From positions 54,318-118,317 of IMG/VR virus record IMGVR_UViG_3300008261_000027: a stretch of DNA of 64,000 bases; one strand, written 5' to 3'. Under the pieces are notes generated by a model. It was not told where the DNA came from. It was given only the letters and a program-made list of their open reading frames with translations, and searched no databases. The DNA comes from a virus. Of the stretch, positions 56,819-64,000 are shown in pieces. Position 1 is the stretch's first letter. The number at the start of each line of letters is the position of its first letter. A program made the position numbers and the translations under genes.

Positions 56819-56849
56819 TACCCCATATTTTTATATGGGGTATTTTTTT
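56819..56849 (+). terminator. Intrinsic terminator between convergent genes
   Basis: TACCCCATAT-TTTT-ATATGGGGTA then T run. Confidence 0.8.
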
Positions 56850-58299
56850 ATAACATCATTCTAGATCCTACTAAAAAATTGTGTAATATCGGCGTTCCAG
56901 GGGTTGTATTTAAATTGGCTTTATAATTTATACTTAGCCCGAAACGCTTACTTATTTTATAATCAAAACTACTACCCAATAAAAAACCAAAATTACGGTT
57001 AACAGTTGTTTGCCCAGTGACCGTATTATATGCGATTGGTGATGACATAGCAAATACTTGTGGTGATAATGTTATCTTCTTACTATATTGATATGGTTTG
57101 GTCCAGAAAACAACCATTGAAGATGATAATGACACATCATACCTCTTCTCAACATTTTTTGTAAACAAAGAAATTAAACCCACGTTATATCCATAGGTAC
57201 CTCTTTTAATATCTGGTTTAACCCAAGTATACCCCATTAAATTCATTAATGTTCCATTAAGATATGCAAATGTTGATGAATAACTATTAATTGCGTTTAA
57301 TTTTCCATTTTTAAAATCCATTTTTGTCATTCCGCCAGACAATGCAAATTGATTTAAAGAAGACCAAATCATTGCATTTGCGCTATATGATTTATCACCC
57401 ATTAAAGATGATTTACTTAAACCAAGTGATAATATAACATCAAATTTACCATCGATATTTTGTGCCGTGGTTAAATCAGACGCCAATAATAATGGATTTG
57501 TATTCTGTTGTTTTTTCTTTTCCTCTTTTTTCTCTTCTTTCTTTTCTTCTTTCTTTTCTTCTGATTTAGATTCTTCTTTTTTCTCTTCTTTCTTTTCTTC
57601 GGACTTGCTTTCAGATTTTGATTCCTCTTTAGATTCTGATTTACTCTCTGATTTACTTTCTGATTTAGTTTCACTTTTTTGTTCAGAAGAAGATGACCCA
57701 CCACCACTTTTATTTTCCGATGATGATGATGATGATGATGAACTAGAAGAGTTATTTGATGAACTACCACTTGCTGGTGGAGCCGAAGATGTTGATCCTG
57801 CCGAAGCTCCACTGCTTGCTGCAGACGAACTTGCAGAACTACTTGCTGCTGATGATGCTGATGAGCTTGCAGCAGTACTAGCAGAAGAAGACGCGGCATT
57901 ACTCGCAGCCGATGATGCTGCCGATGATGCTGCTGAAGATGCTGCCGCACTGGCAGCTTGAGATGCTGCTTGTGAAGCCGCCTGAGATGCTGCCTGTGAA
58001 ACAGCTTGTGTTACCGTTTGTTGAACAACAATATTTGTTGGGCAAGCCCTGGAGCTGTATGATAGATAAGTTGCCTGCAGCCAAGTATTCATAGCACCAC
58101 TTTGTACTTCTAGTTGTGTAAAAGTTTTAACTTGATCATAAAATGACACTATTGCATTTCCATTAACATATGTTGTAGTTGCAACTTTTATTTCACCGGT
58201 ACACTTATCAACAAATGTTTGTGTAAAAGTCTGACCATTAACTTTTAACGAAAAAAGTATTAAAAAAAATGTTAAATAAAATAATTTATTTTTTTTCAA
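56848..58299 (-). CDS. Secreted protein: small N-domain, low-complexity stalk, C-terminal beta-barrel-like domain
   Basis: Signal peptide ending VNG|Q; Cys pair; QAAS/SAAS/ESKS/EEKK repeats; alternating beta-strands in the C-terminal ~215 aa. Confidence 0.7.
   Translation of the reverse strand: MKKNKLFYLTFFLILFSLKVNGQTFTQTFVDKCTGEIKVATTTYVNGNAIVSFYDQVKTFTQLEVQSGAMNTWLQATYLSYSSRACPTNIVVQQTVTQAVSQAASQAASQAASQAASAAASSAASSAASSAASNAASSSASTAASSSASSAASSSASSSAASSGASAGSTSSAPPASGSSSNNSSSSSSSSSSSENKSGGGSSSSEQKSETKSESKSESKSESKEESKSESKSEEKKEEKKEESKSEEKKEEKKEEKKEEKKKQQNTNPLLLASDLTTAQNIDGKFDVILSLGLSKSSLMGDKSYSANAMIWSSLNQFALSGGMTKMDFKNGKLNAINSYSSTFAYLNGTLMNLMGYTWVKPDIKRGTYGYNVGLISLFTKNVEKRYDVSLSSSMVVFWTKPYQYSKKITLSPQVFAMSSPIAYNTVTGQTTVNRNFGFLLGSSFDYKISKRFGLSINYKANLNTTPGTPILHNFLVGSRMML
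57515..58005 (-). repeat. Coding low-complexity tandem repeats (12-nt units)
   Basis: (QAAS)n, (SAAS)n, poly-S, (ESKS)n, (EEKK)n in series. Confidence 0.85.
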
Positions 58300-58304
58300 T
58301 TAAT

Positions 58305-59123
58305 TTAAAAATTAACTCCCAAACCAAATGTTGTGTTTGTTTGAATTGGGTCATAATCAACTTTTATTGTCATATTCTTAAAATCGTGTAGAGCGCCAAC
58401 TTTAACTGTTGTAAAACGATTTGAATATTTTGGGAATGTTATATAACCATCGGCATCTTTTCCACGGTATCTCACAATCTCGTTAATACTACCCACCATA
58501 AAATGGACTCCAGTTCTCTTAACCCTTTTTCCCAAGCCAACATAAAATGAGTTTAATTTAATCAAATCATTAACAAGTGGAAAATCAATAAGGTCTAATC
58601 TTCCATATGGGTAAAAAGTTGATTTATCAGGTGTGAAATTATATTCAGTAATAAAATATCCTTTATTTCCTATTGTGAAAAAACCACCTATTTGATTATC
58701 TGTTGATTTTTGTAAACCGAAACTAATTACAGGTTTTTTCCCTCTAATTGTATCGCGTTTACCATCATCATATACATAAATTCTTGCTGGTTGTCTATAC
58801 CCCCAATCATTCCAATAAAAAGAAGGTGACCAAAAATTCCAACCAAACGTTGGAGCACCCCACATATTCCATCTATTCCAACCCCAACCCCAATCATTCC
58901 ACAACCAAGGATTGTTATTAATTATTATATTTGATCCTGGTTTCGTTTGTTTTGGTCTGTTAAATTCTCTTGGTCCATCATTTCTCCACATACTAATATC
59001 ACTTCTTTGTCCCTGAATCGATGGTATAGATCTTGATGGTGACGGCGGATTAGTTCTCCATGAACTTGTTTGACCAATTGTCAACAATGGCATTAAAAGT
59101 AGAGCAAATAAAATCTTTTTCAT
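58305..59123 (-). CDS. Outer-membrane beta-barrel protein with Trp/Gly-rich N-terminal region
   Basis: Signal peptide LTIG|Q; WGWGWNRW repeats; C-terminal beta-signal FGLGVNF. Confidence 0.75.
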   Translation of the reverse strand: MKKILFALLLMPLLTIGQTSSWRTNPPSPSRSIPSIQGQRSDISMWRNDGPREFNRPKQTKPGSNIIINNNPWLWNDWGWGWNRWNMWGAPTFGWNFWSPSFYWNDWGYRQPARIYVYDDGKRDTIRGKKPVISFGLQKSTDNQIGGFFTIGNKGYFITEYNFTPDKSTFYPYGRLDLIDFPLVNDLIKLNSFYVGLGKRVKRTGVHFMVGSINEIVRYRGKDADGYITFPKYSNRFTTVKVGALHDFKNMTIKVDYDPIQTNTTFGLGVNF

Positions 59124-62199: not shown

Positions 62200-62202
62200 A
62201 TA

Positions 62203-63096
62203 TTAAAATTGAAAGTTTGTTCCTACCATAAACATTATTGGATTTTCTTTTTTATAGCCCGCAGATTCAACCAACCAATCCCAAGTTGTATTATATCTTA
62301 TATTAGTATTCAACACAAATCTTTTAGTTATTTTCCAATCTAAAGATGTACCATAATAAAGATCTATATTGAAATTTTTTACATAACCAAAATTATAATC
62401 AATCCCATCTTTATATTTTGTGTAGGCATCACTCATGGCAAATATTTGTGGAGAGATATTAACTCTTTTCGTTCTAATTGTATAAGTGTACATCAACATA
62501 CCCCTTAAAGTAAGTTCGTTTGATGCGGGTATTGTTGGGTAAATTAAATCTAAAAAATCACCATTTTCATCAACGGTGTACTCACCTTCCCATTCACCCT
62601 GATAAGAGTTCCAAAATGTTTTAGATACAATAAAACTATATCCGAATGTTCCCCACTTTTTTGTTCGATGAACATCTATTAGTGAAATATTAATATCCTT
62701 TTGAAAGTTAAAATCGGTTGAATAAAATGTTTGTAAGGTAGTAGTTCTGTTTTCGGTATTTCTTGATAAACCATAACCGGCACCATAATATTTCCATGCA
62801 GGATTTATTGATACTGCAAATGAATGACCCCATCTACCATTTAAAGATGATTTACTATATCCTAAATTTAATGTTGTGGATATTTGCCTACCAATTATAC
62901 CGACAGAAAGATTTGATGATGATAATATATCTTTTGAGAAATCAATATATGATTCCAAAATACCTAAATCGTTCCAATCATCAGTTTCTTCAAACAACTC
63001 TCTGTTTGTTAATTCCAACGTGTCAGGTGTTGATATTTGTGCAGTTGAAACAAAACTGATAGAAAGTAGTGATAATATGATTATTATTTTTTTCAC
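62203..63096 (-). CDS. Outer-membrane beta-barrel protein
   Basis: Signal peptide STA|Q; amphipathic strands; ends VGTNFQF; shares SPQ.FAMS and KI(T/S)KRF with the 56848 barrel. Confidence 0.75.
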   Translation of the reverse strand: MKKIIIILSLLSISFVSTAQISTPDTLELTNRELFEETDDWNDLGILESYIDFSKDILSSSNLSVGIIGRQISTTLNLGYSKSSLNGRWGHSFAVSINPAWKYYGAGYGLSRNTENRTTTLQTFYSTDFNFQKDINISLIDVHRTKKWGTFGYSFIVSKTFWNSYQGEWEGEYTVDENGDFLDLIYPTIPASNELTLRGMLMYTYTIRTKRVNISPQIFAMSDAYTKYKDGIDYNFGYVKNFNIDLYYGTSLDWKITKRFVLNTNIRYNTTWDWLVESAGYKKENPIMFMVGTNFQF

Positions 63097-64000
63097 TTAT
63101 AGAACTTTTACATTTATTTTATTCAATGATGTATTAAGTGTTTCTACACTCTTTACCGAAATCAACCCCAATATGTTTGTTATGTTAGTTTTTGGTTTGA
63201 ATACTACTTTGTATCCCACATTTGATATTGAACCACCCGATGTACTCAATGAACCCAAACTAATAAACGAACCATTATTTCTACCAAAGTTTGTGGATTG
63301 AGTATTGTTAAATTCAACTTTAGAAAATTCTATTTTTGAATTATCAAAATAAACATCAAATTGAGTTGCTCCTATTTGATTACCATTTGGATTTAATACA
63401 ATAGTTGCAACGATATTGTCATCTATTTTTTCCATCATAATATCAGCTTCGACATCACCAACTGAATTAGTTGACACCGCCATTGATTTAATTTGAGACA
63501 CATCACTATTATTTGCTGATGGTACATATCCTGTTGGTTGGGAAGAATGTGAAAGGTTTACATCCCCCTTCCAAGTTACATCTAACCCATAAGAATTAAG
63601 TGTACCATTTGTAAATGTGAATGGGTATCTATATCTCGTAATTCCGGTGTAAGTGTTCCAATTTTGTTTTGTGATGTTATCATATGCAGATGAGTTCACA
63701 ATTTTCATAATATCACCTAATGCCGGTGGGTTTGGCCATAAAGAAGTTGTACCCTGTAAATGTGTTAGTAATGCGTAACAATCTCTTTCATCAAACATTC
63801 CATCATCATTTACATCTGCATTATGAAATTGAATACCCGATGTAAAATACTTGCTTTCATTTCCTAATATTCCTTTATCCGCAAATTCTTTAAATGCTAA
63901 ATAAACATCACCAACAGTAACTGCACTTCCTAACAATGTAAGTAAATCACTTTGTTGAATATCCATAGAAATTTTATGGTATTTAAACATTGTGTTTTGT
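63097..64000 (-). CDS. Large exported-type protein, C-terminal part (runs off right edge), with dockerin-like and cohesin-like segments
   Basis: Frame stays open upstream of 63990; V.VGD..LA, ADVNDDG.FD..D...L, KGDVNLSH; C-terminal QF...FD..K..F..V. Confidence 0.65.
   Translation of the reverse strand, partial: QNTMFKYHKISMDIQQSDLLTLLGSAVTVGDVYLAFKEFADKGILGNESKYFTSGIQFHNADVNDDGMFDERDCYALLTHLQGTTSLWPNPPALGDIMKIVNSSAYDNITKQNWNTYTGITRYRYPFTFTNGTLNSYGLDVTWKGDVNLSHSSQPTGYVPSANNSDVSQIKSMAVSTNSVGDVEADIMMEKIDDNIVATIVLNPNGNQIGATQFDVYFDNSKIEFSKVEFNNTQSTNFGRNNGSFISLGSLSTSGGSISNVGYKVVFKPKTNITNILGLISVKSVETLNTSLNKINVKVL

Follow-up and report, generated by a model that had tools for sequence, protein, structure and literature searches.

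The curli channel CsgG has a lipid anchor, a nonameric composite 36-stranded barrel and stacked Phe/Asn/Tyr constriction rings (PMC4594475). In phages, clusters of csgG and csgF without curlin genes have been described in pelagimyophages of the HTVC008M group (Zaragoza-Solas et al. 2020, PMC7029224), where a "sibling capture" hypothesis was put forward for csgG, and a csgG/csgF cluster has been described in the Methylophilales phage Melnitz, for which a gated pore that times lysis was proposed (Buchholz et al. 2022, PMC9004378). The present work concerns a comparable locus in IMG/VR viral record IMGVR_UViG_3300008261_000027, a 118,317-bp contig from lake water with an estimated completeness of 38%, of which we analyzed the final 64 kb (hereafter, the window). 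At the end of this window, eleven consecutive genes (g01 to g11) encode products that appear to be exported or membrane bound, among them g03, a remote relative of the CsgG/HfaB family with a predicted CsgG fold. Our best reading, to which we give a probability of roughly 45%, is that this cassette rebuilds the surface of the infected cell, with g03 as a ring in the periplasm or beneath the outer membrane that would serve as a conduit or scaffold.

The published phage clusters and the present cassette have several characteristics in common, as all belong to T4-like myophages, all place a CsgG-type gene within a small cluster of genes for exported proteins, with no csgA or csgB (PMC7029224, PMC9004378), and all are located in a variable region between the replication and structural modules. 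In contrast, the csgG and csgF genes of the pelagimyophages and Melnitz are recognizable by sequence and resemble proteobacterial genes, whereas g03 has no Pfam match, no lipobox and no Phe clamp, and no CsgF was found beside it. The partners also differ, as those encoded here are predicted 12-stranded barrels, lipoproteins, the probable membrane tether g07 and lectin/cohesin proteins, and these phages infect Bacteroidota. The cassette shares the idea of the phage csgG clusters, not their genes. An earlier note on this DNA, made from its letters alone, had stated that no characterized system with this gene set was known to it; this still applies to the set of genes itself, while a phage CsgG-type channel without curlin is already in print (PMC7029224, PMC9004378). 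A literature search found no paper on the cassette in Bacteroidota phages, although the supplements of two phage papers may hold relatives.

The listing of open reading frames (ORFs) bears out eleven back-to-back minus-strand ORFs, which occupy the window from 56848 to its end, as the earlier note had described (56848-64000). The window end is also the physical end of the contig, and the cassette runs into it. The genes are as follows (aa, amino acids).

g01, 56848-58299, minus strand: 483 aa; signal peptide, 2-Cys domain, stalk and predicted C-terminal 12-stranded barrel
g02, 58305-59123, minus strand: 272 aa; exported Trp-rich protein with a C-terminal Phe, possibly a small outer-membrane barrel
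g03, ORF 59207-59974 (255 aa), likely gene 59207-59923 (238 aa), minus strand: exported, non-lipidated protein with a predicted CsgG fold
g04, 59925-60146, minus strand: 73 aa; small membrane protein with a single strongly hydrophobic segment
g05, 60150-60416, minus strand: 88 aa; small membrane protein with two hydrophobic segments
g06, 60450-61154, minus strand: 234 aa; membrane protein with an acidic, Asp/Gly-rich, Cys-containing C-terminal region
g07, 61148-61465, minus strand: 105 aa; probably anchored in the inner membrane, with its tail in the periplasm and its C-terminal peptide conserved
g08, 61481-61849, minus strand: 122 aa; small lipoprotein, lipobox Cys17
g09, 61846-62199, minus strand: 117 aa; small lipoprotein, lipobox Cys17, paralogue of g08
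g10, 62203-63096, minus strand: 297 aa; signal peptide, predicted 12-stranded outer-membrane barrel, C-terminal Phe
g11, 63097-63999, minus strand: 300 aa, open at the window end; C-terminal part of a probable exported lectin and cohesin-like protein

Judging from their sequences, all eleven products have export or membrane signals. The earlier note had claimed a signal peptide, lipobox, transmembrane helix or exported-type domain for every gene; signals of the first three kinds can be read from the sequences, with the N-terminus of g11 supplied by its full-length relatives. N-terminal signal peptides followed by Gln were read in g01, g02, g03 and g10, and a Gln after the cleavage site (the "Q-rule") is typical of signal-peptidase-I substrates in Bacteroidota. 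The true start of g03 is likely the Met at 59923, because most of its relatives have the corresponding length of 238 aa. None of g01 to g10 had a match above the Pfam cut-off (24,736 models, E ≤ 0.1), nor did g11 (E ≤ 0.01), and those cassette proteins that were scanned against PHROGs, NCBIfam and PADLOC returned nothing significant. CsgE, CsgF and the curlin repeat are all represented in Pfam and likewise had no match at these thresholds, in agreement with the earlier remark that no curlin gene is visible; divergent analogues are possible. Weak matches of the low-complexity stalk of g01 to CDC27, tail fibre PHROGs and serine-rich proteins were rejected as spurious.

The link between g03 and CsgG is beyond the reach of HMMER searches that start from g03, and was reached by hhalign and by fold. 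Directly, g03 has no Pfam match (E ≤ 0.1), the CsgG model (PF03783) matches nothing on the whole contig at E ≤ 10, phmmer against PDB sequences gave NadA at 0.015 only, and a profile of the 35-member alignment described below gave nothing below 0.1 against the PDB. A phmmer search of 1.84 billion representative sequences with g03 returned 213 matches at E ≤ 0.001. From 30 near-full-length matches of this search (22-51% identity), four close relatives found in the protein-cluster search described below and g03 itself, we assembled an alignment of 35 members, all of them phmmer matches to g03. Pfam recognizes CsgG (PF03783) in 14 of the aligned members (best 1.9e-17) and LpoB in six; when ten members were scanned singly, five exceeded the CsgG cut-off of 20.8 bits (27.2-63.7 bits) and five had no CsgG match. 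Aligned by hhalign to E. coli K-12 CsgG, the g03 alignment gave a probability of 94.5% (E 8.2e-8, 225 columns). The AlphaFold2 model of g03 has a mean predicted local distance difference test score (pLDDT) of 82.2 and a predicted template modelling (TM) score (pTM) of 0.72, and its top Foldseek matches are CsgG structures (E 5.9e-7, TM 0.52-0.58). In VIA-align, the top eight rows were all CsgG with Z 11.8-13.2 (4uv2: root-mean-square deviation [rmsd] 3.6 Å, 174 residues aligned), followed by PelC (10.0), the Cj1090c lipoprotein (10.0), FlgT, LptE (~8) and TraT (6.9). The best match in a viral structure library was a phage protein named CsgG (1.3e-6), and a language-model search placed g03 next to CsgG/HfaB and LpoB clusters at 0.93-0.94. 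Together with the model, these searches argue for a CsgG fold in g03 and for its remote homology to the CsgG/HfaB family. No second CsgG-like paralogue was found in the contig, and among 80 related loci only matches at E 0.005 appeared, in two of them.

We compared g03 with the E. coli protein (4UV2, 4UV3, 6L7A; PMC4594475), to which it aligns with Z up to 13.2. The order of elements agrees, as do the Tyr-Pro of the constriction loop and the presence of insert regions at both hairpin positions; the differences are an identity of ~12%, the lack of a lipid anchor, a replaced Asn-Phe clamp, shorter hairpin regions and a cassette in which csgE, csgF, csgA and csgB were not found. At the N-terminus, the phage clade has an Ala-Gln site of the signal-peptidase-I type, with the phage Gln-Thr conserved at 0.98, and no conserved Cys where distant bacterial relatives have an L-x-G-C lipobox, which itself aligns with the CsgG lipobox. 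The top conserved motif of the aligned family (Tyr-Pro-Glu-Leu ... Lys-Arg-Val-Gly) aligns with the CsgG constriction loop. In this 12%-identity alignment, Tyr67-Pro68 of g03 fall opposite Tyr66-Pro67 in the E. coli precursor, and the CsgG clamp residues Asn70 and Phe71 align with a Lys and a gap. The two CsgG inserts, which we take to be the transmembrane hairpins (reportedly mature residues 134-154 and 184-204; Goyal et al. 2014), correspond in g03 to stretches of 20 vs 25 and 22 vs 29 residues. The g03 model has a long, confident hairpin at the first of these (133-151/155-172) and, at the second, a long strand (178-193) with a low-confidence return (pLDDT 62 at residues 191-210). In our reading of the model, neither face is uniformly hydrophobic, with several Glu, Asp, Lys and Asn residues on both faces. 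By analogy, g03 likely forms a ring, which may or may not span the outer membrane. Of the CsgG-like pore proposed in the earlier note, the fold and the remote homology stand (Foldseek, VIA-align, hhalign), while the lipobox and the Phe/Asn clamp are not kept.

The distant bacterial relatives of g03 differ from the phage protein in that they are lipoproteins. Ten bacterial loci with relatives at 27-41% identity, from Ignavibacteriales, Rhodothermales, Bacteroidota, Cloacimonadota, Nitrospinota, delta-proteobacterial and other metagenome-assembled genomes (MAGs), contain the g03-like gene and no other cassette gene. In two of three such loci that were scanned (L093, 5564-9930, and L095, 5405-9895), the g03 relative comes after genes for a caspase-domain (Peptidase_C14) protein and another lipoprotein, and in L093 it precedes an OMP_b-brl-like gene. 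From its gene content, this arrangement looks like an uncharacterized type of bacterial operon.

Among the phages, in contrast, g03 travels in a recurrent cassette. A scan of IMG/VR with g03 gave 509 pattern matches, 507 of which encode a g03 relative, and at the level of protein clusters (90% identity) 5942 of 6554 candidates reach E ≤ 0.001. Locus statistics were taken from the best 80 of the 507 IMG/VR loci, which were selected by their likeness to g03, a choice that favors g03 conservation. Across these related loci, tblastn with the window proteins found the order and strand of the cassette kept, on viral contigs up to 335 kb in length. Wherever the flank beyond g01 is present (e.g., loci L002, L003 and L073), the same ClpB-like, kinase and RNA-ligase genes follow. 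Counted by tblastn at E ≤ 1e-5 in loci with enough flank, an approach that misses divergent copies, g07 was present on the same strand upstream of g03 in all 46 loci with ≥6 kb of upstream sequence. In the same 46 loci, g06 was found in 37, g11 in 36, g08 in 28, g09 in 27, g05 in 19, g04 in 18 and g10 in 15; on the other side of g03, g01 was present in 53/72 loci and g02 in 12/72. Some relatives have other genes inserted into the cassette. For example, extra small genes lie between g03 and g02 in L073 (10720-11157) and L050 (10846-11082); one extra gene has a Cys-rich N-terminus that is FeoA-like by eye, and another encodes a 59-aa membrane protein that is PspC-like by eye. In a tblastn search of 50,697 phage records, g03 matched only four records, all of Flavobacterium phage vB_FspM_immuto (53.6% identity), which is cultured on Flavobacterium sp. 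strain LMO8. Its compact cassette extends from lectin gene gp013 to the g01-like gene gp018, in the order C-type lectin, hypothetical protein, cohesin-domain protein, 103-aa gene (gp016, g07-like), g03 homologue (gp017) and a 474-aa gene at the g01 position. Conservation of gene order in relatives, on which the earlier proposal depended, is therefore seen both in long viral contigs and in an isolated phage. About 5% of sampled words were recovered in two lake-water metatranscriptome runs, a small share from which we make no claim of expression.

Within the block, g03 is the best conserved gene. Its median identity over the 80 related loci is 89.2% (82.2-97.3), compared with 74.3% for the neighboring ClpB-like ATPase, 73.9% for g10, 61.5% for g07 and 40.6% for g11. 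In 123 close g03 sequences, the block means of conservation are 0.63-0.68 in the signal peptide and 0.89-0.99 throughout the mature part, hairpin regions included. Synonymous differences between g03 and its seven usable relatives amount to 0.53-0.76 per site, and therefore point to an old divergence under strong constraint, with no recent sweep. The ratio of nonsynonymous to synonymous change (dN/dS) was 0.043-0.076 for g03 (four computable pairs), 0.059-0.097 for the ClpB-like gene, 0.087-0.377 for g07 and 0.121-0.198 for g10, after four rows had been dropped as misaligned (pN > 0.6: g03/L002, g06/L073, g06/L026 and RNA ligase/L002). We conclude that g03 is under strong purifying selection.

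The block belongs to a T4-like large phage of Flavobacterium-type Bacteroidota. T4-type genes are present in the window, including the major capsid protein Gp23 (4.1e-74), the portal Gp20 (7.8e-75) and the large terminase, and the GC content of the block (0.31-0.335) falls within the range of the whole window (0.275-0.380). An artefact, in which host DNA was mis-joined onto a phage contig or chance hydrophobic N-termini happened to fall in a row, has two points in its favor, namely the situation of the block at a contig end and the existence of close copies in MAGs labelled as bacterial (L083-L087, assigned to Flavobacterium, Sediminibacterium and "Bacteroidetes"). These MAG copies, however, have the same phage neighbors g07, g06 and g11, and we read them as phage contigs that were binned with their hosts. 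The identical gene order with phage flanks also occurs inside long viral contigs (L073, a 335-kb contig) and in the isolated phage genome. Mis-assembly of host DNA is effectively refuted by these observations, and we consider the probability of an artefact to be negligible; the phage origin assumed in the earlier note holds.

Two cassette proteins, g10 and g01, are probably outer-membrane barrels related to one another. The g01 and g10 sequences match in BLASTP (3e-9), and hhalign joins g01 residues 270-483 to g10 residues 57-297 with a probability of 99.5% (E 1.6e-22, 204 columns), as expected from the relationship between two barrel proteins claimed in the earlier note. The g10 model, computed from an alignment of 60 sequences of the g10 family and g01 C-terminal domains, is all-beta, with ~12 long strands after two short helices (pLDDT 65, pTM 0.60), and every Foldseek match is an outer-membrane barrel. 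VIA-align ranked the NalP translocator (Z 20.4, rmsd 2.8 Å, 206 aligned), KdgM (20.1), a COG4313 channel (19.6) and FapF (19.3) at the top, followed by EspP, BrkA, AIDA-I and NanC (18-19), intimin and invasin (~16.8) and 14-stranded barrels (12-14). The models thus predict homologous 12-stranded outer-membrane barrels in g10 and in g01 residues 270-483, the latter because of its homology to the modelled g10, and the NalP, KdgM and FapF scores tie. No match to g10 was found in Pfam, PHROGs or NCBIfam, and none to g01 in Pfam (E ≤ 0.1), Autotransporter included, or in NCBIfam. In front of its barrel, g01 has a signal peptide, a ~70-aa domain with two conserved cysteines (Cys33 and Cys86) and a low-complexity stalk of ~170 aa, which is Ser/Ala-rich and then Glu/Lys-rich. 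From its sequence, the domain order is that of a classical autotransporter (passenger, linker, C-terminal barrel) and, loosely, that of FapF. Autotransporter beta-domains (NalP, EspP, BrkA, AIDA-I) and FapF accordingly resemble g10 and g01 in the C-terminal barrel (Z 18-20), in the N-terminal domain-linker-barrel order of g01 and in the short N-terminal helices that precede the barrel of g10. The likeness is limited, however, by the lack of a Pfam Autotransporter match, by a g01 passenger of only ~70 residues on its low-complexity stalk, by the non-aromatic final Leu of g01 and by KdgM-type porins that score equally. Both g10 and g02 end in Phe, as substrates of the beta-barrel assembly machinery (BAM) often do. 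A small outer-membrane barrel is also possible for g02, whose nearest named Atlas clusters in the language-model search are OMP_b-brl_2 (0.89) and OMP_b-brl (0.88), a lead only, and which is unrelated to g10 by BLASTP and hhalign. Of three barrels proposed earlier, two are accordingly borne out by predicted 12-stranded folds, and with the g03 model the folds expected of the cassette were obtained, while g02 remains a lead.

The product of g11 is probably part of an exported family with lectin and cohesin-like domains. In g11 itself, the Pfam Cohesin match is below threshold (1.4e-3, 19.3 bits vs a cut-off of 24.1). In L002, the g11 homologue is the C-terminal part of a longer ORF (765 aa) that has both a signal peptide and a Lectin_C match (1.8e-5), and among 24 full-length relatives (~760 aa), which begin with a signal peptide, Lectin_C was recognized in 20 (best 9.7e-7) and Cohesin in 13 (E ≤ 0.01, best 3.1e-7). 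The closest full-length relative, in L004, reaches 24.4 bits for Cohesin. LCCL, Rxt3 and Por_Secre_tail were found in one relative each. Dockerin had no Pfam match in g11 (E ≤ 0.01) or in the 24 relatives, and the only comparable feature is a single EF-hand-like loop seen by eye. The dockerin/cohesin-like protein of the earlier note therefore survives as a cohesin at the level of the family and not as a dockerin. The family is variable, with identities down to 19% among the 24 full-length relatives. As g11 is far more variable than g03 (median 40.6% for the window fragment vs 89.2%), it would fit a ligand-binding surface part. Cargo of the type IX secretion system paired with a PorP/SprF barrel was also considered for g11 and g10 and was rejected, as NCBIfam gave no match at E ≤ 1 for g10 and a full-length g11 relative.

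Among the small membrane proteins, g07 is the constant companion of g03. From the N-terminus, it consists of a conserved acidic stretch, a Gly/Thr-rich hydrophobic segment, a conserved Ala-Pro-Val-Ile-Asn-Ile-Thr-Asn-Ser-Asn motif, a variable Pro/Ala/Lys spacer and a nearly invariant C-terminal peptide of 15 residues that ends in Trp. The hydrophobic segment (~residues 18-40) is weak, with a Kyte-Doolittle mean of ~1.3 by hand calculation, which is below the cut-off of 1.6 that was applied. No family match was found for g07 in Pfam, PHROGs or NCBIfam. In its layout, g07 probably corresponds to a membrane tether whose binding peptide is displayed in the periplasm, and we infer from its constant company with g03 that the two may bind. 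A complex prediction with two copies of g03 and periplasmic g07, run without controls, scored 0.00 against a mark of 0.32 and speaks neither for nor against binding. Of the four small membrane proteins described previously, g04, g05 and g06 have clear hydrophobic segments, and g07 has this weaker one. In g06, which had no family match in Pfam or PHROGs, the strong segment spans residues 36-67, with one or two segments overall. The C-terminal third of g06 also contains two adjacent Asp-x-Asp-Gly-Asp-type loops and a Cys/His cluster, and may bind metal. Pfam matches to g05 were all below threshold. The lipoproteins g08 and g09 are paralogues, as had been claimed, by BLASTP (3e-13), hhalign (99.1%) and the lipobox Cys17 of both. 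For the Ig-like character that the earlier note also gave them, Pfam returned no more than sub-threshold matches of g08 to DUF3244 (4.7e-5, 23.7 bits vs a 25-bit cut-off) and Por_Secre_tail (0.042).

Three candidate transcription signals lie in and beside the cassette.

59156-59180, minus strand: terminator-like hairpin (11 pairs and a T-run) between g03 and g02
59144-59151, minus strand: TATTTATA motif on the coding strand, 28 nt upstream of the g02 start
56819-56842, no strand assigned: terminator-like palindrome separating the g01 end from the plus-strand gene that converges on it

The TATTTATA motif occurs 11-42 nt upstream of the portal and terminase genes and of some ten other gene starts, and its informative orientation appears to be on the coding strand just upstream of starts. 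This placement suggests that TATTTATA is a promoter. Copies include those at 45239-45246, 47062-47069, 41176-41183, 17313-17320 and 59144-59151. Several copies are so close to the ATG (11-13 nt) that, as a -10-like promoter element, the motif would allow for hardly any leader. The T4 late promoter word TATAAATA was found 21 times on both strands, compared with 13.7 +/- 3.9 expected. A terminator and TATTTATA pair also precedes the g02-g01 unit in L073, and TATTTATA lies within ≤160 nt after g03 in only 11/80 loci. In the window, g02 and g01 probably form a separate, late transcription unit. The promoter of the unit from g11 to g03 would lie beyond the contig end, and the block is the promoter-distal 7 kb of the cassette.

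On the opposite strand beside the block are genes for a ClpB-like double AAA+ ATPase, a small kinase and a T4 Rnl1-type RNA ligase. The first of these (52254-54272, plus strand) is a full ClpB/ClpA-like protein (AAA_2 8.1e-68, ClpB_D2-small 6.8e-19) with 74-83% identity across 19 related loci. The small AAA_33 kinase (54876-55298, plus strand) is directly 5' of the RNA ligase (55311-56429, plus strand; 4.7e-20), and the two, conserved beside the cassette in relatives, may be an RNA-repair pair. Between the ATPase and the kinase, a short ORF (54375-54641, plus strand, with an inner Met near 54470) has a lipoprotein-type signal (a hydrophobic stretch, then Ala-Cys-Gly-Ser) and a tail rich in Thr, Ser, Ala and Asp; a similar 55-aa ORF adjoins the ClpB-like gene in L032.

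Returning to the rebuilding of the infected-cell surface, the identity of the parts is well supported, and their assembly and purpose are our best guess. The products would be exported through the Sec pathway of the host and processed by signal peptidases I and II, and the host BAM complex would insert the barrels. In an autotransporter- or FapF-like manner, g01 could use its long stalk to present the small, disulfide-bonded N-terminal domain, with the stalk reaching either out of the cell or across the periplasm. The g03 ring would sit in the periplasm or under the outer membrane, held by g07 instead of a lipid anchor, and act as a conduit or scaffold rather than as a curli-type pore, in the manner of PelC or LptE with their barrels. 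PelC/PelB, a lipoprotein ring under a separate barrel, and LptE/LptD illustrate that the fold works with a separate barrel, and we propose, purely as an analogy, the same relation of g03 to g10 or g01. It should be noted that the PelC (Z 10.0) and LptE (~8) matches are weaker than those to CsgG and cover fewer residues (127 for PelC), and that the cassette has no polysaccharide or lipopolysaccharide genes. The purpose would be the rebuilding of the surface itself, for example the display of variable lectin/cohesin adhesins.

A lysis or egress device is another way to assemble the same parts, with the g03 ring, g07, the holin-like proteins and the barrels linking or breaching the membranes, either as a spanin substitute or in lysis timing like that suggested for Melnitz. 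A precedent exists in the lysis-timing role proposed for phage CsgG/CsgF by Buchholz et al. (PMC9004378), g04, g05 and g06 are holin-like in size, and the TATTTATA before g02 is the same as that before the portal and terminase genes, suggesting late expression. In addition, a 275-aa ORF of L040 (5548-6375, minus strand), divergent from the reduced cassette there, has a peptidoglycan-binding-like N-terminal repeat by eye and may be an endolysin. Nevertheless, neither Pfam nor PHROGs gave a holin family match, and no Phage_lysozyme, Amidase_2 or GH19 was found in the 118-kb contig, which is 38% complete and for which the GH19 search was uninformative, as its control went unmatched. The annotated endolysin of vB_FspM_immuto is ~8 kb away with many genes between. 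Furthermore, g03 hardly varies, unlike lysis proteins, which usually diverge rapidly, and the lectin/cohesin adhesins have no obvious role in lysis. We regard this explanation as unlikely. A more specific proposal, which we offer as a doubtful conjecture, is that g07 and g03 together form a new type of phage trans-envelope device, in which a non-lipidated CsgG-fold ring, tethered in the periplasm via the C-terminal peptide of g07, docks under the 12-stranded barrels and either exports and anchors adhesins on the infected cell or breaks the outer membrane at lysis. In its lysis version, such a device would replace spanins, which are unrecognized in Bacteroidota phages.

Superinfection exclusion or receptor masking would require no secretion at all, as envelope proteins could block other phages or hide receptors, in the manner of the exclusion lipoproteins of phages and plasmids, while lectins coat host glycans. 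All products are predicted to be in the envelope, the adhesin is highly variable, and TraT, the ring-forming surface-exclusion lipoprotein of the F plasmid, is a weak fold match to g03 (Z 6.9, rmsd 4.5, 142 aligned, rank 48). A Z of 6.9 falls in the range of common arrangements, however, and no PADLOC match was found. Such genes are also usually accessory and fast-evolving, whereas g03 and g07 are universal in this group and g03 is nearly invariant, and exclusion seems to us distinctly improbable. A true type VIII, curli-like system, in which g03 is an outer-membrane pore that exports an unrecognized amyloid or fibre subunit for cell aggregation, agrees with the CsgG fold of g03, with the alignment of its constriction-loop Tyr to that of CsgG and with the presence of the amyloid exporter FapF among the best g10 barrel matches (Z 19.3), and this hypothesis is in print for pelagimyophages (PMC7029224). 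In this case, too, the details are contrary: g03 has neither the lipobox nor the clamp Phe/Asn, its hairpin regions fall 5 and 7 residues short of those in E. coli CsgG and lack a clearly hydrophobic face, NalP and KdgM score on a par with FapF, and the cassette has no Pfam match to CsgE, CsgF or the curlin repeat at the thresholds given above. We consider it very unlikely.

Several points also weigh against the rebuilding of the cell surface around a g03 ring. No secretion substrate was found, g03 itself has no match in Pfam, PDB sequences, PHROGs, NCBIfam or PADLOC, and the g10 model is of middling confidence (pLDDT 65). The content of the cassette is variable (g10 in 15/46, g02 in 12/72, g04 in 18/46 and g05 in 19/46 loci), such that its parts need not act together, and a terminator and a separate promoter-like motif appear to split g02-g01 from g03. 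If g06 has two membrane segments, its acidic tail may be cytoplasmic. The small membrane proteins and the endolysin-like gene by the L040 cassette would fit a role in lysis equally well. Lastly, genes for surface remodelling or exclusion are not usually as extremely conserved as g03, and the extreme conservation of g03 and g07 together is poorly accounted for by every explanation.

Irrespective of which reading is correct, g03 ranks among the most abundant proteins, and among the best conserved, in a very common group of phages from lakes, and yet it has been nameless and without a family match. The present analysis provides a handle for its annotation, as a predicted CsgG-fold protein that travels with a probable membrane tether, autotransporter-like barrels and lectin/cohesin proteins. 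It also links the Bacteroidota phages of lakes to an unsolved question, namely why marine T4-like phages carry csgG and csgF, and the cultured relative vB_FspM_immuto, which grows on strain LMO8, makes this question directly testable. Should the cassette turn out to act in display or in place of spanins, a gap in the phage biology of Bacteroidota would be closed.

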